The translations under genes were made by a program, and so were the position numbers. The notes beneath the pieces were generated by a model, which was given only the letters and a program-made list of their open reading frames with translations, ran no database searches and had not been told where the DNA came from. Shown one piece after another: positions 1 to 9,588 of a stretch of DNA of 16,805 nucleotides. Source of the stretch: a virus (lineage: Duplodnaviria > Heunggongvirae > Uroviricota > Caudoviricetes); the IMG/VR virus record IMGVR_UViG_2974602345_000001, positions 141,332 through 158,136 of that record. The stretch is one strand, 5' to 3'. How positions within the stretch are numbered: the stretch's first letter is position 1; every line of letters begins with the position of its first letter.

Positions 1-1416
1 CTGGACTTCAAGGAGTCCATTGACGCCTACACCTCGATGCTCAAGAATGAGTATCTTCACACCATCCCTGAGCGAGTGATTGCAAACAAAGAACTGCTGA
101 TCAAGCACTCCAAGCAGTTCTTCCAGTCACTCGGTACTGAGAAGTCGTTCCTGTTCAAGATCCTCTATGGCGAAGATGTTGAACTGTACTATCCAAAGAC
201 TGACATTCTGCGTGCGTCAGACGCCCACTGGATCGACAACGAAAGTATGATGTATGTGTCGAACAGCGGTAACGTGAACAACTTCCTGTACCGCCGAATC
301 ACCCAGAAGCGTGAACTGGCTGCGTTTCCAGGGCAGTATGAATACGCCTATGCCACTGTCAACCGTATCATCAACCGCTATGCAAACAAATTCAACTTCG
401 CCGAGTTGTACCTGACTGATATCCAAGGCGAGTTCAAGCTGACTCACCCTGTGACGGTCGATGACGTAAACGTGGAGTGGATCCTGCCCATCGCTGACTC
501 TGTCGAGATCAACTCGCCAGGGTTGAACTATGTGGCTGACAACACGATGACTTGGGCGGGCGACAGTCACTTTGAACTGGTGTTGACTGCGACTGAACCT
601 GGCTACATCGACACTCGATACACAACTCTGTTCAACGCCGACGAGCTGACCGTTAGTATCAACGGCGCTACGGTGTCAAATTTCACGTATGACGGCAAGA
701 CTGTTCAACATCCGGACATTCTACCGAGTGTGGACGTAACCGTGCGATGGCCGGTATACAAAGGCTTCATCATTGTTAGCTCAGTCGATGCTCTGGGCGG
801 CATTCTTGATGTTGCTCTTGTTGATACGCCGTTCGGTATCGTCACGCCTCAGCTGCTCCAAGCGGATGAGGGTGGTTCAGGGGGTAGTGTAACTCTCATT
901 CCTTCGGTAACTCGAAAGATTGACGGCTACTTCATGACAACTGACAGCTTCCTGTCAAGCGACAAGATGCTTCAGGACTCTGAGTACTACCAGGACTATT
1001 CGTACGTCATCCGTGCAGGTATCGACGTTGAGAAGTATCGTGACATCGTGCTGCAGGTTCTTCACCCCGCTGGCTTGAAGATGTACGGTGAAGTGAACAT
1101 CATCGAGTTCATCAAGCTGATCATCCGTGATGAAAGCTTCGACATCATTGTCAACTTCGCCGGTGAGATTGAGTTCTTGTCAGCCGTTCCGCTGTACAAC
1201 CGGTATGGGTTCGTTGAAGACTTCAAGCACGCCCAGACGTCTGAAACTTACAAGGTGAATGACTTCAAGCACATGGTTGTCGGCGATGTGATGACCAAGT
1301 TCAACAAGCCGCTGAACTATCACTTCTCCAACATTGAGTACAACGAGGGTCCGTACTCTGACCCGACCTATGTTGATGATGATTACGTTGTGGATGCAAT
1401 CTACCACACCGGCTAA
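1..1416 (+). CDS. gp7: Baseplate wedge subunit, T4 gp7-like (5'-truncated by window)
   Basis: Frame is open from base 1 (LDFKESIDAYTS precedes the track Met at 37). LIKHSKQFFQSLGTEKSF..ILYG near the start and LSSDKMLQDSEYYQDYSYVIR...VLHPAGLKMYGEV near the end match motifs I recognise in gp7-like wedge proteins of T4-superfamily phages. Position directly upstream of RBP genes fits. Confidence 0.75.
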   Translation: MDFKESIDAYTSMLKNEYLHTIPERVIANKELLIKHSKQFFQSLGTEKSFLFKILYGEDVELYYPKTDILRASDAHWIDNESMMYVSNSGNVNNFLYRRITQKRELAAFPGQYEYAYATVNRIINRYANKFNFAELYLTDIQGEFKLTHPVTVDDVNVEWILPIADSVEINSPGLNYVADNTMTWAGDSHFELVLTATEPGYIDTRYTTLFNADELTVSINGATVSNFTYDGKTVQHPDILPSVDVTVRWPVYKGFIIVSSVDALGGILDVALVDTPFGIVTPQLLQADEGGSGGSVTLIPSVTRKIDGYFMTTDSFLSSDKMLQDSEYYQDYSYVIRAGIDVEKYRDIVLQVLHPAGLKMYGEVNIIEFIKLIIRDESFDIIVNFAGEIEFLSAVPLYNRYGFVEDFKHAQTSETYKVNDFKHMVVGDVMTKFNKPLNYHFSNIEYNEGPYSDPTYVDDDYVVDAIYHTG

Positions 1417-1452: not shown

Positions 1453-3435
1453 ATGACGGCAGATAAGACAAAGGTAGTTCAGCGTGGGATCAAAGGGTCG
1501 AAACTGACCCACCCTGAACTAGATGGTAACTTCCAGGAGCTGGTCAACGTCATTGACGATGTTGCAGCTATTCCAAACACATTTGCGACCATTGCTTCGC
1601 TTGAGGTTGTAGAGACGGCTCTCCAATCAAAAACAGAGCAGACTGACATTGATCAGTCCATTGATGCACTTGAAACCAACCTTAGTGCAACTGATGGTGC
1701 AACGCGGGTGGGTCACGGGGCTGGTACTGTAGCAGCAGCACTCGATGCAGTGACTGACGTTACTGACTCGCTGACGTCGGACACTGGATCTGACGTCGTC
1801 AAGATCCGCGGGCGAACTATCACTGAGCGCTTTGATGACGCCCTTAACGTTCTTGACTTTGTTCAAAAGCCCTACACGGATACATCAAAGCATCAAGCGG
1901 GTATTGTAGCAGCAATTGCAGCCGCCAAGCTTCAAAACAAAGAACTGTATTGGCCTATGCTGCTCACTAGCACTGAAGCGTTGGCTGACTTGCATACAGT
2001 TCGTCATCGTGGTCCTGGTGGAATTGTAGCTGGCTCTGACACGTTCTACGTTGACCCAACACCTACACAATCAAACAAGCTGTACATGGCCCCTAGTGGC
2101 ACGGGTGATGGTATCACCAGCGCACGACCGTTGAATGGGTTTACTGGTACAATAAGCGTCCTTCAGCAGTATGCACCTCTTTGCACTCGTTGGGATGTTG
2201 TGGGTTCGGCGGGCACTTACATTGAGACTGTGGTTATCCCCGACTGGATTGCAATCGGTCGCAGCTACCTTGCGTTCACCTTCCCTGCACCAGTGGGTGA
2301 TCGTGCAGAGCCCGCTACCTACCCTGCAATCCTGAGTGGTAGCGGCTTGACTGCACTGCAAGGCTTCCTGTCAGGTCTTGGTAACCGGATCAGTATCAGC
2401 AACCTCGCCGTCAACAACTGGTACGATTCAGCACTGACAAACGTCAACCAGGTGCGTCGTGGCTTGAGTGTAAGCTCAGGTAGCTTTGTCTACCTTGTCA
2501 ACTGCGCAATGACAAACAACGGCTTGGCAAACGTGTCTGCTCTACCAGGTGGTACTGCTGTAGTCACAGGTGGCGTATACGATGGCGCTCGGTACGGCTT
2601 CGACAACACAGGTGGCCGCTTGTCGTTCAGTGCTACCACTACCACATACTCGGTAGTTCGAAACGCACTGGAATACGGCCTGTATCAGAAGCACGATTCG
2701 TCTACAGTGATGGACTACACTGAGTTCAGAAACTGCGGTAAGATTGCAGCTGCGGTAAGCTACGGTGCAGCTATCTTCGCGTACAAGTCGAACGCATCCG
2801 TTGACACCCGTGGCGTGAAGTTCTACGCCAACAACATCTGCTGGAACGTCCGTGGCGGCTTTGTTGCTGACAACCCTGGTATTCCTGATGTGTACGGTAC
2901 TGGTGCTGACGCCAACGCTCGCCGTTATCTGTGCCGTGGCGGTGGTCGTGACGACATCGACACCTATGAAACCAACTCAGTGAATGACATCACCAAGCGC
3001 TTTGGCGGTGGTTCGACTACCAGTGCAACCGATGTTCTGTTGCTTGATGCGATTGCTACTACCCGTGAAGGCTACCTGGCCAACACTGACCAATGCTTGA
3101 AAATGCAGCTGTTCTGCCGTGCCCAAACGGGTGACGCGCTGATCACTCCTCTGCTTCGCCATGCAGGTGGCACTGTTTCACTGGGTACCTATCGCATTAC
3201 TGCAGGCAAGTACGGTGAGATTCGTCTGGTCATTCGACCAACCAGTGGACAGACTACCCTCCAAGTCAACTTTGCGTGCACAGACGCAATTCAAAACTTG
3301 GGTGCAGCAGTTGGTCAGATCATCTCATCTACTGTGGACTTGAAAACTGTCAGTCTGTCAGTCGAGGTCAATGGTCGCGCAGAGGGCGGTGGTACGGCAT
3401 CTTTGATGACATGTATCGTAGAAAAGAGCGGTTGA
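1453..3435 (+). CDS. Tailspike/receptor-binding protein 1 (anchor-type N-terminus, beta-helix-like body, C-terminal beta-sandwich-like domain)
   Basis: 660 aa. N-terminal KGSKLTHPELDGNF motif typical of phage tail-fibre attachment segments, GA..VGHG neck, ALNVLDF pectate-lyase-3-like start, G/N/T-rich repetitive beta body. RBS AAGG upstream. Confidence 0.8.
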   Translation: MTADKTKVVQRGIKGSKLTHPELDGNFQELVNVIDDVAAIPNTFATIASLEVVETALQSKTEQTDIDQSIDALETNLSATDGATRVGHGAGTVAAALDAVTDVTDSLTSDTGSDVVKIRGRTITERFDDALNVLDFVQKPYTDTSKHQAGIVAAIAAAKLQNKELYWPMLLTSTEALADLHTVRHRGPGGIVAGSDTFYVDPTPTQSNKLYMAPSGTGDGITSARPLNGFTGTISVLQQYAPLCTRWDVVGSAGTYIETVVIPDWIAIGRSYLAFTFPAPVGDRAEPATYPAILSGSGLTALQGFLSGLGNRISISNLAVNNWYDSALTNVNQVRRGLSVSSGSFVYLVNCAMTNNGLANVSALPGGTAVVTGGVYDGARYGFDNTGGRLSFSATTTTYSVVRNALEYGLYQKHDSSTVMDYTEFRNCGKIAAAVSYGAAIFAYKSNASVDTRGVKFYANNICWNVRGGFVADNPGIPDVYGTGADANARRYLCRGGGRDDIDTYETNSVNDITKRFGGGSTTSATDVLLLDAIATTREGYLANTDQCLKMQLFCRAQTGDALITPLLRHAGGTVSLGTYRITAGKYGEIRLVIRPTSGQTTLQVNFACTDAIQNLGAAVGQIISSTVDLKTVSLSVEVNGRAEGGGTASLMTCIVEKSG

Positions 3436-3438
3436 CCC

Positions 3439-3465
3439 AAAGCCCTCCTAGGAGGGCTTTTCTTT
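3439..3465 (+). terminator. Intrinsic terminator after TSP1
   Basis: Perfect 22-bp palindrome AAAGCCCTCCTAGGAGGGCTTT (3439-3460) followed by TCTTT, 3 nt after the stop codon. Confidence 0.9.
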
Positions 3466-3471
3466 GACTAT

Positions 3472-3479
3472 CATAAATA
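3472..3479 (+). promoter_or_regulatory. Putative T4-type late promoter CATAAATA
   Basis: 7/8 match to the T4 late consensus TATAAATA, 37 nt before the TSP2 ATG, conserved in three cassettes. Confidence 0.8.
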
Positions 3480-3516
3480 GACGCATATACGAATTGTCTT
3501 CAAGAGAAGGACTGAC

Positions 3517-5292
3517 ATGTCAATTATCAAGGTTAACCAAATTCAGGACATCGAGGGCGAAAACGGGATCAACGTCAGTGATCTTGTAAGTAAGATTACC
3601 CTCGCCTCGAGTACCGGATCTTCACAGATTGGTCACGGTGTAGGTACTGTTGAAGATGCGTTGGATGCTGTAAAGAGTGTTACTGACTCACTCACATCCA
3701 GTACAGGATCTAACTCAATCATGTACAAGGGTAGGTCAGTTTCTGATCGATTGGGTGATAGTGTAAGTGTAAAGGACCATGGTGCCGTAGGTAACGGGAC
3801 GGATGCAACTGCAGCGTTCAACGCTGCTCTGGCTGTCAGCTCGTCTGTGTATGTACCTGAAGGTGTGTACTTGATCGGAGACGTTGAGCTGAACGGTAAA
3901 CGTTTGTACGGTAATGGCACCATACTCAAGAAATCAACAGCGCAGCAATCCATCATTGTGAAGGGTAACGGCTCTGAAGTGATTGGCTTGAAGTTCAAGA
4001 GCCAATCTGCCAACGGACAACCTAACACTGACATTCGGCTTGGAGATGGTGCCAAAAACGTTCGCATCAAAGGGAACCACTTTGCGGGTAGAACCTACAG
4101 TGCAATCTACGGTGCTGACGACACTACAACGACGCTCTACACCAACCCAGTAGACGGTGTTGTAATTGAAGGTAACGTGTTTGATGCAGAGGACAAGGTG
4201 AACAACCTCAGGTATGCTCGCCACATCTACCTGCGTGAGGTTAAGAACCTGGTTGTTACGGGCAACTTGTTCAGAAACAGCTCATTTGACTCTATTCGTC
4301 TACGGGGCAGGAACGGGTACTGCATCATAACATCCAACAACTTCACCGACATTGGTTTGTTCCCGCCACCTGACGACCAAACCCGCGATGCGGTTGATAC
4401 ATACTGGGGCGGCGATCTGTTGATTGTGTCAAACAACACAATTAGCGGGGTTGGATACATTGGCTTGGACTTGAAGAACTCGGCCCGTAGTGGTGTTGAT
4501 GATGCTGGAGTTGTGGGTGAACGTACTCGTCAGTTCATAGTAACAGGGAACATCATTGACAAGACTTGGATGGCAGGTATTGTTATCTCTGGTGATGACT
4601 CATCTACTCTGCCACTCCATAGTTGCATTGTCCATGGTAACATTATCCGCAGGTTTAACCAGTCAGCCACTGGTACCGGTACTGGCCAATCAGGGATAAA
4701 CATAAAGGCGTTGGCTCGCCATGTGAAGATCTCAACGAACATCATCCAGGAGGGTAATGCTCGTGGCGTGTTTGTTGAGGGGACGACTGCGTACTTGGAC
4801 CTTGTGTTCAACACGATCATCAACAACGCTGAGGCTGGTGCTGTATTGACTGATGTTCAAGACATGAAGATCATCGGTAACACTATGGCCCAAGACACAA
4901 ACGTTCCGAATAGCGGTCAGCAGGCAACAGGGTTGATTGTGTCAAACCCATCCAACCTCGCTAAGACTATGATCATGGCGTTCAACACGTTCAAAGACAA
5001 CGGGACGTTGCAAGTGTCTCTGAACCCGTCAGGGAACAGGTTTACCGGGTTTGCACAAATCATTGGTAACATCGAGTCGGGCCCAGGAAAAATGTCTGAC
5101 AGCTACCCTAGAACAGGGCACTCGAGGCGTATCATGCACGGTACTGCGATTCCAACTTCAGCAGACGGAACCTTTGAAGTGGGTGACATTCTGTACAACG
5201 TTGCACCCGTTGCTGGTGGGTTCATGGGCTGGTCTTGCGTTACTGCTGGGTCACCTGGCACGTGGAAGACGTTCGGTGCCATCAGCGCTTGA
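3517..5292 (+). CDS. Tailspike 2, right-handed beta-helix depolymerase-like
   Basis: 591 aa. VSVKDHGAVGNGTDATAAFNAALAVSSSVYVPEGVY (Pectate_lyase_3-like), repeated IxGN/VxNN beta-helix rungs (IEGNVF, VTGNLF, VSNNTI, VTGNII, VHGNII), C-terminal PT..GTF.VGD..YN..P..G..GW.C...GSPGTW motif. RBS AAGGA. Confidence 0.9.
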   Translation: MSIIKVNQIQDIEGENGINVSDLVSKITLASSTGSSQIGHGVGTVEDALDAVKSVTDSLTSSTGSNSIMYKGRSVSDRLGDSVSVKDHGAVGNGTDATAAFNAALAVSSSVYVPEGVYLIGDVELNGKRLYGNGTILKKSTAQQSIIVKGNGSEVIGLKFKSQSANGQPNTDIRLGDGAKNVRIKGNHFAGRTYSAIYGADDTTTTLYTNPVDGVVIEGNVFDAEDKVNNLRYARHIYLREVKNLVVTGNLFRNSSFDSIRLRGRNGYCIITSNNFTDIGLFPPPDDQTRDAVDTYWGGDLLIVSNNTISGVGYIGLDLKNSARSGVDDAGVVGERTRQFIVTGNIIDKTWMAGIVISGDDSSTLPLHSCIVHGNIIRRFNQSATGTGTGQSGINIKALARHVKISTNIIQEGNARGVFVEGTTAYLDLVFNTIINNAEAGAVLTDVQDMKIIGNTMAQDTNVPNSGQQATGLIVSNPSNLAKTMIMAFNTFKDNGTLQVSLNPSGNRFTGFAQIIGNIESGPGKMSDSYPRTGHSRRIMHGTAIPTSADGTFEVGDILYNVAPVAGGFMGWSCVTAGSPGTWKTFGAISA

Positions 5293-5295
5293 CTC

Positions 5296-5322
5296 AAAGC
5301 CCTCCTAGGAGGGCTTTTCTTT
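5296..5322 (+). terminator. Intrinsic terminator after TSP2
   Basis: Same 22-bp palindrome as 3439-3460 (5296-5317) plus T-rich tail. Confidence 0.9.
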
Positions 5323-5328
5323 GACTAT

Positions 5329-5336
5329 CATAAATA
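5329..5336 (+). promoter_or_regulatory. Putative T4-type late promoter CATAAATA
   Basis: Same motif as 3472 and 7329; 34 nt before the TSP3 ATG. Confidence 0.8.
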
Positions 5337-5370
5337 GAACACATAGTGCATTATCATAGAAGGGCATGCA

Positions 5371-7290
5371 ATGTCAATCACCAGAACTAACACGTTGGCT
5401 GATGTGAATGGTAACAACTCCATTAATGTCAGCGAACTGGCGAGTAAAGTCGTCATGAGTGCGCCTGAAGGTGCATCAAAGATCGGGTACGGCAATCGAA
5501 CTCAAGAGCAAAAGAACGGTGACGTACTCTCAGTTCGTGATTATATCACAACCGCAGTCAACGGCGTGACCAGCAACCAGGCGGGCATTGTTGCAGCCGT
5601 TGCAGCTGCTAAGTCTTCAGGAGCAAGTCTCCATTGGCCTGCCGGCACATATGTGTCCACCGCAAGTATTCCTGACTTCCACTCAGTTCGCCACACAGGT
5701 CCTGGCGTTGTAAAACGCGGTACAAACCTGTTCAGCATCAGTCAGTTTGACTCAGCAATGAACACGCTGTTCGTTAGCACTTCCGGGTTGACTACCAATG
5801 ACGGCCTTTCATCGACTGAGGCAATGCTTAGCCCTAACGCTGCCGTTAACCTGTGGGGTGCAAAGTACGCTGCAACTGCATGCGGGCCATGGAAAATCAA
5901 AATCGCAGCAGGTACCTACTTTGAGAGTATCATTGCTCAAGGGTACCAGTCAAACAAAGAGATTTTCCTTGAGGGTGAGTATGACGCAGTCAACCAGGTC
6001 CCACTCACGATCATGGATGGCTCTGTTGGAGCGACAAACAGTGGGATCATCTTCACTACCTACGGGTGGGTGAACTGCAAATGGATACTTTGCCAAAACT
6101 TCACTACCGTTGGCGCAGGCGGTTTCAACATCGGCAACTATGGTCGCATGACTATTGACACTTGCCATGCGTACAACAACAACCTGGTTGGCTTCAGTGC
6201 AGCTCAAGCAGCTGACTTGCGCATCATTGGTCGTTGCTATATCAAGCCGTCAGCAAACGGCACTGGTGTTACCTACTACCGGCAGTGCACAGGTAGCTGG
6301 TCTGATGCCACGGGTGAGATCATTATCGATGGTTTCAACAACGCAGCGACCACTGGTGTTCTGGTTCGTGACAACTCGTATGTGGTTGCAGGGTGCAAAC
6401 TGACGGTCCGGAACTGCACATCGCAAGCAGTTTGGTTGCGTCGCCATTCGTACCTTGAAGTGCGTGATTACGAGATCACCAACAACAACATCGCGTTCGA
6501 CCTGCGTGACTTGTCCCTGCTTGCACCAAACGGCGGCACTCAAGTTCTGACGGGCAACACTCAAGATTATGCTTACAAGAACTTCTCACTGCCATGGGAC
6601 ACTGCTTCAAACATGGCTATTGGTGCAGATGGTCCATCTGTTCAAGCACCTTCTGCTGGTAACTACGCACTGGTAGTTTCAGGCAAAAGCCAAGTGGGCC
6701 AACAGTTCCTGACTGATGCATCAACTTCAACGATCAACATTGATTTCAACAAGAAAGGCAGTTTGGTCTACGCGCAAACTGACAACACTTTGCGGATTGC
6801 GCTTAACAGTGCAGACGCTTATCGCTTTGCAGCTTCAGTGTTCTACCCTACTGTTGACAACGCAAAAACACTGGGTGGTTCATCATTCAGGTGGTCAACC
6901 ATCTACGCCGGTACTAGTACTATCAACACCTCGGATGAAACCGCTAAGCAGCAGATCAAGCCGATTGACGACGCGTGTCTGCGCGCATGGGCCAACGTTG
7001 AATACGTCCAGTACAAATTCAACGACGCAGTTGAAGCAAAGGGCGATGGTGCTCGTTGGCACTTCGGTCTGATTGCTCAGCGCGTCAAGAAGGCGTTTGA
7101 GGATGAAGGTCTCAATGCGTTCGACTACGGTCTGCTCTGCTATGACGAGTGGGACGAACAGCCGGAAGAGGTTGACGAAGAAGGTAACATCATCCAAGCA
7201 TACCTTGCAGCGGGCAGCCGTTACGGCATCCGTTACGAGGAAGCGCTTGCACTTGAGTGCGCCTATCTGCGTAGTCTGTTGAAGAAGTAA
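5371..7290 (+). CDS. Tailspike/tail fibre 3 with C-terminal intramolecular chaperone (Peptidase_S74-like autocleaving domain)
   Basis: 639 aa. PTVDNAKTLGGSSFRWSTIYAGTSTINTS|D (Ser521 at 6931-6933) followed by WHFGLIAQRV..AF..EGL...DYGLLCYDEW and RYGIRYEEAL, classic endosialidase-type chaperone motifs. Beta-helix-like middle region. Confidence 0.9.
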   Translation: MSITRTNTLADVNGNNSINVSELASKVVMSAPEGASKIGYGNRTQEQKNGDVLSVRDYITTAVNGVTSNQAGIVAAVAAAKSSGASLHWPAGTYVSTASIPDFHSVRHTGPGVVKRGTNLFSISQFDSAMNTLFVSTSGLTTNDGLSSTEAMLSPNAAVNLWGAKYAATACGPWKIKIAAGTYFESIIAQGYQSNKEIFLEGEYDAVNQVPLTIMDGSVGATNSGIIFTTYGWVNCKWILCQNFTTVGAGGFNIGNYGRMTIDTCHAYNNNLVGFSAAQAADLRIIGRCYIKPSANGTGVTYYRQCTGSWSDATGEIIIDGFNNAATTGVLVRDNSYVVAGCKLTVRNCTSQAVWLRRHSYLEVRDYEITNNNIAFDLRDLSLLAPNGGTQVLTGNTQDYAYKNFSLPWDTASNMAIGADGPSVQAPSAGNYALVVSGKSQVGQQFLTDASTSTINIDFNKKGSLVYAQTDNTLRIALNSADAYRFAASVFYPTVDNAKTLGGSSFRWSTIYAGTSTINTSDETAKQQIKPIDDACLRAWANVEYVQYKFNDAVEAKGDGARWHFGLIAQRVKKAFEDEGLNAFDYGLLCYDEWDEQPEEVDEEGNIIQAYLAAGSRYGIRYEEALALECAYLRSLLKK

Positions 7291-7293
7291 ACC

Positions 7294-7322
7294 AATCCCG
7301 CCCTAACCGGCGGGATTTCTTT
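7294..7322 (+). terminator. Intrinsic terminator after TSP3
   Basis: Stem AATCCCGCC (7294-7302) / GGCGGGATT (7309-7317), 6-nt loop, then TCTTT. Different hairpin from copies A/B. Confidence 0.85.
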
Positions 7323-7378
7323 GACTATCATAAATAGACGTATATGAATTATCTTCAAGAGAAGGACTGTCATGTCAA
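7316..7378 (+). repeat. Intergenic cassette copy C (promoter + leader)
   Basis: TTTCTTTGACTATCATAAATAGACG...GAATT.TCTTCAAGAGAAGGACTG.CATGTCAA is near-identical to 3459-3523. Confidence 0.9.
7329..7336 (+). promoter_or_regulatory. Putative T4-type late promoter CATAAATA
   Basis: Third identical copy; 35 nt before the TSP4 ATG. Confidence 0.8.
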
Positions 7379-9351
7379 CAGTTAACGTCAACAAAATCGC
7401 TGAGCGGACCGGCACAAACCCGATCAGCGTGAAGGACATTGCCAACAAGGTTACTTTGGCTGCGTCTGATGGTGCATCAAAGATCGGTTTCGGTTCAGGC
7501 ACCGTAGCAGATGAGCTGGTTAAAATCAAGGATACCTTGGTAACGCTTGAGGCGAACATCTGGAACTATGCGTCGCTCATCACAGAAAAGCCTTCATTGC
7601 TCGACCCTACCACTTGGGACTGGACTCCAGCTTTCCAAGCTGCTGCCAACCAGGGTGGGTCACTGTACGTCCCATCGTCGACTTACATCATCAGTCACGT
7701 ACAGGTGCCTAAGTCGTTCTTCATCCACGCAGCTGCAGGCACTGTGTTTTTCCAGAAGAACAACACCATTGTAGCCAAGACTCACTGGACGCCTGGCGTT
7801 GGTATGTTTGAGCTGTCGACTGATGGGATCAGCTTTGGCGTTGATGGTTTTTGGACGTTTGACGGTAACTCGGCAAACCAGGTTCAAATTGAGCCAGCAG
7901 GTACGTTCGTCAAGTGCATGCCGTTCAACCCTGCTACCAACACGAAGCCGACCACCATTGAACTCCACAACGGTACCTTCATCAATGGCTCTTACAGCTA
8001 TGTGATTGCGCGTGGTGATGCACTTCTGCGTCGGTTCGTGACAAAGGTCCACCTGCATAACTGCACCATGTATGACACCCTCTACGGTGTCGGTAAGGGT
8101 GACCCTGCTACTCCGTCGGCTCTTGGGTTCTCGCCTACCTATGTCATGGCTCTCGACTATGTGATCCTGACCACGCACAACCTGCGTATGTTCTTCGAGA
8201 AGCCGGTCAGCCTTGGTAAGTACGCAGCCACTGGTGTTCTGGGCACCTACTACGGTCAGGACTACGCCAACTCGGGCCAAGCACTGATCATGCTCGAAGG
8301 TATCACCTACTGCAAAGGCATGGGTCGGGGTGGTGTGAACTGGGACGGCGATCCACTGGGTCTGAACGGCATTGGCGTAATCGACGTCTACGGCAACGGT
8401 GATACTCTTCACGTTGAGCACGTTGTAGCTGAAGACTGCCACGTACAGGTCATCCGTGCAAAGGCATCGCTGAACAAGTTTCACGTTGGCAAGTTCGACC
8501 TGAATAACTGTGATGGCGGTATCCAGGTGTCTCCGTCGAGCACTGGTCCTGCAACTACCAGCGTTTACATCGGTCCAGGTGAAGCGACTGCATGCGCTGT
8601 GCCTATTGTTGAAGTAACCGGCACCACTACTTCTGACACCATTCAGAAGGCGGTTATTAACGGCGTATTCGTTAAGGGCGGAACAAACCCCAACGCTCGT
8701 ACCGCTGTAGGCTCTATCCACGTGAGAAACGTGATTGACGTGGCGATCAACGACGTCACTGTGCGGAACTGCCCTCTGTACGGTATCAGTGCAGTTGACA
8801 TCACTCGACTGTCCATCACAAACCCTGCCGTTCGAAACGTGGTTGGCGGTGTTGGTATCTGGATTTCAGGTGGTGTTGACATTGATATCAAAGGCGGTAC
8901 TGTTGCAAGTGCAACAGCTGGTGCAGCCATCAACATGGCAAGCGTCACGGGTGATATCCGTGTTGACCACGTTAAGACTTCGGGCACAAAGGACTACTCG
9001 ATTCTCATCAACAGCGCTTCAGCCAAGTCTGTCGTGATTGTGAACTGCCGAGCGGAGACTGTGTCCGACCTCAGCCGTGGTTATTACTCAGCTGTCGGGT
9101 TTGACCTGCTGGCGGGTAACAAAATCATCTCGGGCGTCACTACTCCGTGGGTCACACCAGCTGGCTTCCGGAACATCATTCGTGACAACTCGTGGGATCC
9201 ATACTTGGGTTGGGGTGGTGCAGCTGCTCCTACTACAGGTACCTACAACCGAGGCGACATCCTGCTCAACCAGTTCCCAACATCAGGGACACCAACTGGT
9301 TTCAGGTGCACCGTTGCAGGCTCACCTGGTACATGGGAAGCCTTCACCTAA
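7372..9351 (+). CDS. Tailspike 4, beta-helix depolymerase-like
   Basis: 659 aa. DWTPAFQAAANQGGSLYVPSSTYII start of a pectate-lyase-like domain, V/I-rich beta-helix rungs, C-terminal APTTGTYNRGD...GSPGTW motif homologous to TSP2. RBS AAGGA. Confidence 0.85.
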   Translation: MSTVNVNKIAERTGTNPISVKDIANKVTLAASDGASKIGFGSGTVADELVKIKDTLVTLEANIWNYASLITEKPSLLDPTTWDWTPAFQAAANQGGSLYVPSSTYIISHVQVPKSFFIHAAAGTVFFQKNNTIVAKTHWTPGVGMFELSTDGISFGVDGFWTFDGNSANQVQIEPAGTFVKCMPFNPATNTKPTTIELHNGTFINGSYSYVIARGDALLRRFVTKVHLHNCTMYDTLYGVGKGDPATPSALGFSPTYVMALDYVILTTHNLRMFFEKPVSLGKYAATGVLGTYYGQDYANSGQALIMLEGITYCKGMGRGGVNWDGDPLGLNGIGVIDVYGNGDTLHVEHVVAEDCHVQVIRAKASLNKFHVGKFDLNNCDGGIQVSPSSTGPATTSVYIGPGEATACAVPIVEVTGTTTSDTIQKAVINGVFVKGGTNPNARTAVGSIHVRNVIDVAINDVTVRNCPLYGISAVDITRLSITNPAVRNVVGGVGIWISGGVDIDIKGGTVASATAGAAINMASVTGDIRVDHVKTSGTKDYSILINSASAKSVVIVNCRAETVSDLSRGYYSAVGFDLLAGNKIISGVTTPWVTPAGFRNIIRDNSWDPYLGWGGAAAPTTGTYNRGDILLNQFPTSGTPTGFRCTVAGSPGTWEAFT

Positions 9352-9352
9352 C

Positions 9353-9381
9353 AAAAAGCCCTCTCACGAGGGCTTTTCTTT
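9353..9381. terminator. Bidirectional intrinsic terminator between late (+) and early (-) arms
   Basis: AAAAGCCCTC (9354-9363), loop TCAC, GAGGGCTTTT (9368-9377). A-tract on the left and T-tract on the right, between convergent genes. Confidence 0.9.
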
Positions 9382-9588
9382 GAGCTCAATGAGCCGTTGC
9401 TCAGGGTCGTATGTGTAGGCTTCAGGCCACTTGCCAGGAACCAACTTCATCTTGGTCCTGTATGGCATCTCAAGCTCTTCAGCGTGGCGCAGCAAGCGAT
9501 TGACCTCCATGCCTATACGCAGTGGGTCTTGGTTGCACAAGTCCACGATGCGGTTGAGGACCGCCACGCTGACCCGATACGACTTCAC
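9364..9588 (-). CDS. Hypothetical phage protein (74 aa)
   Basis: GTG start overlaps the previous stop (GTGA). The stop codon lies in the terminator loop. Confidence 0.7.
   Translation of the reverse strand: MKSYRVSVAVLNRIVDLCNQDPLRIGMEVNRLLRHAEELEMPYRTKMKLVPGKWPEAYTYDPEQRLIELKEKPS
9368..9383 (+). repeat. Truncated cassette copy D
   Basis: GAGGGCTTTTCTTTGA is identical (16 bp) to 3452-3467 and 5309-5324. Similarity stops just before CTATCATAAATA. Confidence 0.75.

Follow-up and report, generated by a model that had tools for sequence, protein, structure and literature searches.

Attachment of second spikes by short N-terminal peptides is already established: secondary receptor-binding proteins of phages are held by conserved N-terminal peptides of 7–29 residues (Latka et al. 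2019, PMC6872550), examples being KP32 gp38 (29 amino acids (aa)), G7C gp63.1 and the hepta- and undecapeptides of K1-5, K1E and SP6 (PMC6872550). In the KP32, G7C and K1-5 systems, a T4 gp10-like domain, located in a first spike or in an adaptor, receives the peptide. Here, we analyze the receptor-binding end of the genome of Pseudomonas putida phage pf16, a peripheral T4-like myovirus of the T4 superfamily (158,136 bp). The stretch examined, hereafter referred to as the window, is 16,805 nucleotides long and corresponds to bases 141332-158136 of the pf16 record; megablast found no close relatives of it among phage records. It encodes four tandem tailspike proteins (TSP1 to TSP4; pf16 gp213 to gp216), the last three of which begin with a common 28-residue peptide that we call the class B peptide. 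In the pf16 paper, gp213 was called a tail fiber, gp214-216 were treated as possible depolymerases, and the shared N-terminus of gp214-216 was not mentioned (PMC5587285).

Large anchor domains are found in CBA120 (Ackermannviridae), in which TSP4 carries AD-XD1-XD2-XD3, TSP2 carries XD2-XD3, and TSP1 and TSP3 carry D1-D2 heads. The initial annotation of the pf16 DNA took spikes with short conserved N-termini to dock on gp10-like platforms; this does not apply to CBA120 TSP1 and TSP3, which dock by head domains of ~150 residues. For anchoring without gp10, two precedents exist. The JD001 group of Klebsiella myoviruses uses an anchor protein that lacks a gp10-like domain (Latka et al. 2019, PMC6872550), and the arm of Staphylococcus phage 812 is built from scaffold gp117, arm segment gp118, tripod gp119 and the receptor-binding proteins RBP1 and RBP2 (PMC13433997). 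In phage 812, the gp7-equivalent scaffold is present in a single copy, is stiffened by gp8-like dimers and carries four trimers per wedge (two tripod trimers, RBP1 and RBP2) without a gp10 domain; the tripod trimers have crevices into which docking loops of 28 and 40 residues insert (PMC13433997).

The pf16 array resembles the KP32, G7C and K1-5 systems in that a short N-terminal peptide common to otherwise unrelated spikes stands in place of a large anchor domain, in that spike bodies are exchanged at the peptide edge, and in that several spikes widen host recognition. Unlike in those systems, a gp10-like domain to receive the peptide is not detectable in pf16, the peptide sequence is unrelated and rare, and the phage is a T4-superfamily myovirus.

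Residues 1-45 of TSP2, TSP3 and TSP4 align without gaps (MAFFT), which reproduces the gap-free alignment of residues 1-41 described in the initial annotation together with its 13 invariant positions (M1, S2, N7, G14, N16, I18, V20, K26, G34, S36, I38, G39 and G41); T44 is also invariant. In 20,000 random draws of ungapped 41-residue triplets from TSP2-4, 13 invariant columns were never reached (the maximum was 4), and the match is thus far above chance. The class B peptides are mutually 44-51% identical, and the DNA that encodes them is just 54-60% identical pairwise. In each pair, 8-12 of the 19-20 identical residues, or about half, are specified by different codons. This divergence of DNA and codon use indicates that the peptide is old and has been kept by selection at the protein level, and is not the product of recent copying or gene conversion.

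The class B peptide occurs exactly three times in the 158-kb genome, and a search across the genome for a fourth copy found none. Elsewhere it is rare. Only four further proteins carry it, one found in a word-indexed collection (P0006) and three by an exhaustive profile search of 1.84 billion representatives (P0127, P0128 and P0130), and scans of IMG/VR and GTDB genomes returned no class B proteins. P0006 has its first 16 residues in common with TSP2 and a different body. A hidden Markov model (HMM) of class B did not match gp9 or gp10. A lead from the ESM Atlas connecting class B with PF07880 was rejected, as its score of 0.83 lies within the range of chance hits and the HMM gave it no backing.

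The edge of the peptide is visible in comparisons with other spikes. From residue 29 to residue 658, TSP4 shares 46% identity with an 842-aa tailspike of Stalingrad and Bosely, which are T7-like phages of P. putida. This match begins near residue 214 of the Stalingrad/Bosely protein, so the class B peptide takes the place of a virion-binding domain of ~213 residues. TSP3 is homologous to spikes of two other P. putida phages, Dolphis and Jeremy, from residue 33 onward, so that only 28-32 residues stand before the shared body in TSP3 and TSP4, and in TSP2 the neck that it has in common with TSP1 starts at residue 29. On these alignments, the 28-residue boundary (28/29-33) is a genuine module edge. 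The TSP bodies are mosaics of each other, and TSP1 from residue 121 to residue 660 shares 61% identity with the tailspike of podovirus AF and 52% with that of phi15, both of which infect P. putida. For a T4-like phage of Pseudomonas, this marks the points at which spike bodies can be exchanged: after residue 28 in TSP2-4 and around residue 120 in TSP1. The metagenomic protein P0127, which comes from another sample, is a TSP3 allele: its residues 1-80 are identical to those of TSP3, its C-terminal chaperone region is nearly identical, and its beta-helix core is replaced. Set against window positions 5371-7290, it presents a clean core-only exchange between conserved flanks.

Because the peptide stands where related spikes carry a large virion-binding domain, it is probably a virion-attachment element. 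A different explanation, which we regard as quite improbable, is that TSP2-4 are not virion parts but are released as free depolymerases responsible for the plaque halo, with the peptide serving folding or trimer capping. pf16 plaques are surrounded by halos, and gp216 has been treated as a candidate for a diffusible exopolysaccharide (EPS) depolymerase (PMC5587285). Yet virion-bound spikes also produce halos, and the class B peptide is placed exactly at the position of the virion-binding domain of related phage spikes, is kept by purifying selection and is also seen on other spike bodies. In addition, late-promoter-like boxes precede the TSP2-4 genes, which are located in the structural module.

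We looked for a gp10-like hub in the four spikes and in the rest of the genome; outside the spikes, this comprised sequence searches only, all of which were negative. PF07880 had no match in the pf16 genome or in five relatives (Pfam). With phmmer, neither CBA120 TSP4 residues 1-340 and TSP2 residues 1-170 nor T4 gp9, gp10 and gp11 found anything among all pf16 reading frames, and the CBA120 TSP1/TSP3 heads (D1-D2) and AD/XD parts gave no match to pf16 at E <0.1. No homologues of gp9, gp10, gp11 or gp12 were detected in pf16 by sequence. Single-sequence queries of the Protein Data Bank (PDB) with TSP1, TSP2 and the gp7-like protein encoded upstream of TSP1 likewise returned no match. Residues 1-140 of TSP1 were also modeled with AlphaFold2 (AF2) and are all-helical. 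As far as Pfam, phmmer and this N-terminal fold show, the XD2/XD3 platform (gp10 domains 2 and 3) is absent from TSP1-4, in keeping with the initial annotation, which had seen no room for a platform in any of the four proteins.

One long reading frame was considered as a hub and set aside. The 733-aa plus-strand open reading frame at pf16 genome positions G000:128293-130494 is in all likelihood not a true gene, since a phrog_2426/VWA protein is encoded on the other strand. This protein (G000:128380-130413, minus strand) is 677 aa long and has a weak match to the VWA domain.

TSP1 was described in the initial annotation as having a different 76-residue N-terminus, which is borne out by the 49% identity between TSP1 residues 77-135 and TSP2 residues 29-87. 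What that account missed is that the start of this N-terminus, hereafter the class A leader, is a widespread anchor module, with 174 confirmed matches to its pattern in IMG/VR, often on two adjacent genes. Its consensus is M..I..R..KGSxLTHxE(L/M)DxNFxxL, and its AF2 model consists of a short turn with a helix at residues 20-39, after which a long helix begins (predicted local distance difference test (pLDDT) score 87-97). Foldseek searches with the TSP1 N-terminal model gave unspecific helical matches only. The gp7-like protein upstream has many relatives in metagenomes, among them P0008 at 87% identity, and in five IMG/VR relatives the gene or genes directly 3′ of the gp7-like gene start with the class A leader: L099 and L102 both have two such genes, L098 has two together with a third spike of a different type, and L025 and L020 have a single one each. 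The class B peptide was not found in any of these five. In the pf16 genome the class A leader occurs once, and it is unrelated to class B (hhalign probability <1%).

By these sequence comparisons, the class A leader is the anchor typical of the pf16 phage group, and it may be a general fiber-attachment signal of cyanophage-like T4 relatives. A word search with TSP1 residues 1-50 retrieved TSP1 itself only, and a literature search by motif letters found no description of the leader. We rejected a relationship to the N-termini of T4 gp9 and gp10, as the likeness of NFxEL noticed by eye was not significant and the class A HMM scored -0.1 bit against gp10. In IMG/VR, the leader (window 1453-1590; loci L098-L175) tops very different proteins, from 82 to 912 aa in length.

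These features also bear on whether TSP1 is itself the hub, with the peptides of TSP2-4 plugging onto its 40-residue coiled coil, neck or body, for example, in a branched complex that would resemble those of G7C and KP32 except for having no gp10-like domain. Among the four spikes, TSP1 alone has the group-typical anchor and alone comes from the baseplate operon, its coiled coil is ~20 residues longer than that in the first spike of relative L099, and anchor-and-branch is the usual solution in other phages (PMC6872550). We nevertheless consider this arrangement unlikely. The TSP1 N-terminus is built as in the class A spikes of relatives that have no class B partners, its residues 1-140 fold into helices only, without a platform domain, and its body from residue 121 is that of the AF/phi15 tailspikes. 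Moreover, a threefold-symmetric TSP1 trimer offers three identical sites, not three different ones.

The initial annotation had suggested docking on a protein encoded outside the spike genes, and candidates are present: one is the gp7-like protein, whose gene immediately precedes the spikes, and two more, a gp8-like protein and a DUF4815 tripod homologue, are encoded 60 kb from the spikes, outside the window. The order of genes upstream of the spikes is gp48, gp53, gp27-like, gp5, DUF5675 protein, gp25, gp6 and gp7-like. The 523-aa gp7-like protein (PF23786, phrog_26741/17744) is related to gp7 by sequence, fold and place after gp6. Its alignment profile matches T4 gp7 residues 729-759 (E 3e-6) and KP1 gp7 (E 1e-7), and its AF2 model has T4 gp7 (5iv5) as the top Foldseek match and a VIA Z of 9.2 to phage KP1 gp7. 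This model is confident only in the beta region, residues 130-360, with low confidence in regions 1-125 and 360-523. Within the beta region, residues 241-304 compare with XD2 of CBA120 TSP4 (7rej/7rfv residues 186-250) at VIA Z 6.2-6.3, which is a lead only, because ~20 unrelated small beta-sandwiches score alike (Z 5-6.7); the same domain also occurs in relatives without class B spikes.

Of the two distant genes, gp124 encodes a 1635-aa DUF4815 protein (PF16075) that matches CBA120 VriC (E 4e-230) and the phage 812 tripod protein (E 1.8e-58). The second, gp125, is gp8-like (T4 gp8, E 7.6e-6) and matches the phage 812 arm segment ORF64 only at E 0.039. Both lie behind perfect T4 late-promoter motifs, and in phages DLP6 and vB_OspM_OC the counterparts of gp124 and gp125 are found directly 3′ of gp7.

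The pf16 proteins can be compared with several described baseplates. As in CBA120, four tandem tailspike genes adjoin gp6 and a short gp7-like gene, gp9-gp12 are absent, and the VriC/DUF4815 proteins of the two phages are strongly related; unlike CBA120, pf16 has none of the TSP anchor domains listed above (phmmer), its gp7-like protein carries a beta insert of ~240 residues compared to CBA120 orf216 (284 aa), and its vriC-like and gp8-like genes are distant from the spikes. Like phage 812, it has a tripod homologue, a gp8-like protein and a gp7-equivalent scaffold, but it infects a Gram-negative host, has tailspikes instead of RBP1/RBP2, and has a much shorter scaffold. As in T4, homologues of gp6, gp7-like, gp8-like, gp25, gp53, gp48 and gp5 stand in T4 order, whereas the gp7-gp10-gp11-gp12 and gp9 arrangement of T4 has no detectable counterpart to gp9, gp10, gp11 or gp12 in pf16, and neither anchor class is statistically like the gp9 or gp10 N-terminus.

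The spike genes are organized as repeated units. A GC-rich hairpin with a U run lies 3′ of each of the four TSP genes, and the 19-bp box TTTGACTATCATAAATAGA has exactly three copies in the genome, solely ahead of TSP2, TSP3 and TSP4. Within this box, CATAAATA is one base off the T4 late-promoter consensus TATAAATA, which in pf16 precedes the capsid, gp124 and gp125 genes. The TSP1 start is 36 bases 3′ of the gp7-like stop codon with no promoter box between them, suggesting that TSP1 belongs to the baseplate operon and that TSP2-4 are self-contained add-on units.

We hypothesize that the class B peptide plugs accessory spikes directly onto a gp10-free baseplate rim, and by analogy with the systems above we give this roughly even chances. 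TSP1, which would be transcribed with the baseplate wedge genes and carries the class A leader, would for that reason be the resident spike. TSP2-4 would be accessory spikes that arose from a triplicated cassette of terminator hairpin, 19-bp late-promoter-like box, ribosome-binding site and 28-residue class B peptide, onto which were joined enzyme bodies with relatives among the spikes of other phages of P. putida. The three peptides of each spike trimer would dock on a rim composed of the gp7-like scaffold, the gp8-like protein and the DUF4815 tripod protein, with TSP1 attached by its class A leader and TSP2-4 by the class B peptide. Direct docking on the rim is suggested by the presence in pf16 of the same three rim-protein classes as in phage 812; we infer this analogy, since docking loops could not be identified in the pf16 scaffold. 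At 44-51% identity, the peptides may fit three related but distinct sites.

An extension of this hypothesis, which we offer tentatively and consider rather doubtful, is a third mounting route that uses neither a gp10-like hub nor a separate adaptor. The gp7-like scaffold with its beta insert, the gp8-like protein and the tripod would together give several sockets per wedge, two unrelated plugs, the helical class A leader and the class B peptide, would address different sockets, and spikes would be added as promoter-plug cassettes.

Several observations weigh against direct docking of TSP2-4 on the rim. The pf16 paper (PMC5587285) contains no proteomics that would place TSP2-4 in the virion. 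No pf16-specific socket was seen: relatives that carry no class B spikes have gp7-like and gp8-like proteins of the same build, and in one of them these proteins also have the same length. Scans for internal repeats in gp6, the gp7-like, gp8-like and VriC-like proteins, gp53, the gp27-like protein and gp48 found no repeated loop motif save a two-copy repeat in the gp8-like protein. Finally, at just 523 aa, the gp7-like protein is small for four spikes plus tripods.

The lack of a three-fold repeated socket in the baseplate proteins scanned would also fit competition of TSP2-4 for one type of site, giving mixed virions in which the first-arriving spike fills each site. One peptide family is present in all three spikes, and the 13 invariant positions could make the whole contact. 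Conversely, the paralogues have diverged from each other while P0127 keeps residues 1-80 identical, which fits a slot-specific constraint, although P0127 may be from a very close relative and the point is not decisive; nor is the retention by each gene of its own promoter box and terminator. We assign competition for a single site type a small probability.

The features of the array are listed in Table 1.

Table 1. Features of the pf16 tailspike array (positions in the window)
Feature	Position	Strand	Details
gp7-like baseplate wedge/scaffold gene, 3′ part	1..1416	+	full gene G000:141176-142747, 523 aa, starts 156 bases before the window
TSP1 (pf16 gp213)	1453..3435	+	660 aa; phrog_27277, tail spike
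Class A leader of TSP1 (aa 1-46)	1453..1590	+	motif KGSxLTHxELDxNFxEL; leader recurs after gp7-like gene in relatives
TSP1 coiled coil (aa 47-76) and neck (aa 77-120)	1591..1812	+	AF2 helices 43-80 and 93-109; neck aligns with TSP2 29-87
Terminator-like hairpin after TSP1	3439..3460	+	9-bp stem and U run, -14.8 kcal/mol
19-bp box TTTGACTATCATAAATAGA, copy 1 (late-promoter-like CATAAATA)	3463..3481	+	three copies in the genome, only ahead of TSP2-4
TSP2 (gp214), beta-helix spike	3517..5292	+	591 aa; PF13229, phrog_21471
Class B anchor peptide of TSP2 (aa 1-28), putative	3517..3600	+	TSP2-4 alignment; TSP1-TSP2 alignment; profile search
Terminator-like hairpin after TSP2	5296..5317	+	GC-rich stem and U run
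19-bp box, copy 2	5320..5338	+	
TSP3 (gp215), spike with endosialidase-type C-terminal chaperone domain	5371..7290	+	639 aa; PF13884, PF12219
Class B anchor peptide of TSP3 (aa 1-28), putative	5371..5454	+	alignment; homologue edge
Terminator-like hairpin after TSP3	7294..7317	+	
19-bp box, copy 3	7320..7338	+	
TSP4 (gp216), beta-helix spike	7372..9351	+	659 aa; body related to Stalingrad/Bosely tailspike
Class B anchor peptide of TSP4 (aa 1-28), putative	7372..7455	+	alignment; homologue edge
Terminator-like hairpin after TSP4, closing the array	9354..9377	+	followed by TTTCTTTGAG, box remnant without promoter-like part

Compared to known short plugs, what differs here is an Ackermannviridae/812-type rim in a T4-superfamily myovirus, two unrelated anchor classes in one array, a promoter-plug cassette for each added spike, and no detectable gp10-like platform. 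As gp10-like domains are now the marker of branched systems and pf16 carries four spikes without them, surveys for those domains alone would miss such systems. We know of no baseplate structure for the pf16 phage group, and both anchors are concrete targets for one.

Some further observations concern the proteins and DNA discussed above. The repeat in the gp8-like protein (G000:82224-83537, minus strand) is a tandem repeat of ~41 residues, ..NPGxGY....I.G.G.GATATA..., at residues 186-278 (score 59 versus a shuffled maximum of 39), and it has matches in parts of 'virion structural protein' families from giant cyanophages. CBA120 orf216 (L177 18485-19339) and its families PHROG phrog_3465/460 are annotated as 'head closure Hc2', a label that looks wrong because orf216 is homologous to the gp7-like baseplate protein, although short (E 2e-5 to pf16).

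A near-consensus sigma-70-like site (TTGACA, 16 bases, GATAAT; 11/12 matches) lies on the minus strand at window positions 5350-5377, antisense over the TSP3 start codon; sigma-70-like sites in the region are no more numerous than in shuffled sequence. At the far end of the array, window positions 9354-9385 hold the fourth hairpin copy together with TTTCTTTGAG, the start of the 19-bp box, as if this were the stump of a further cassette.

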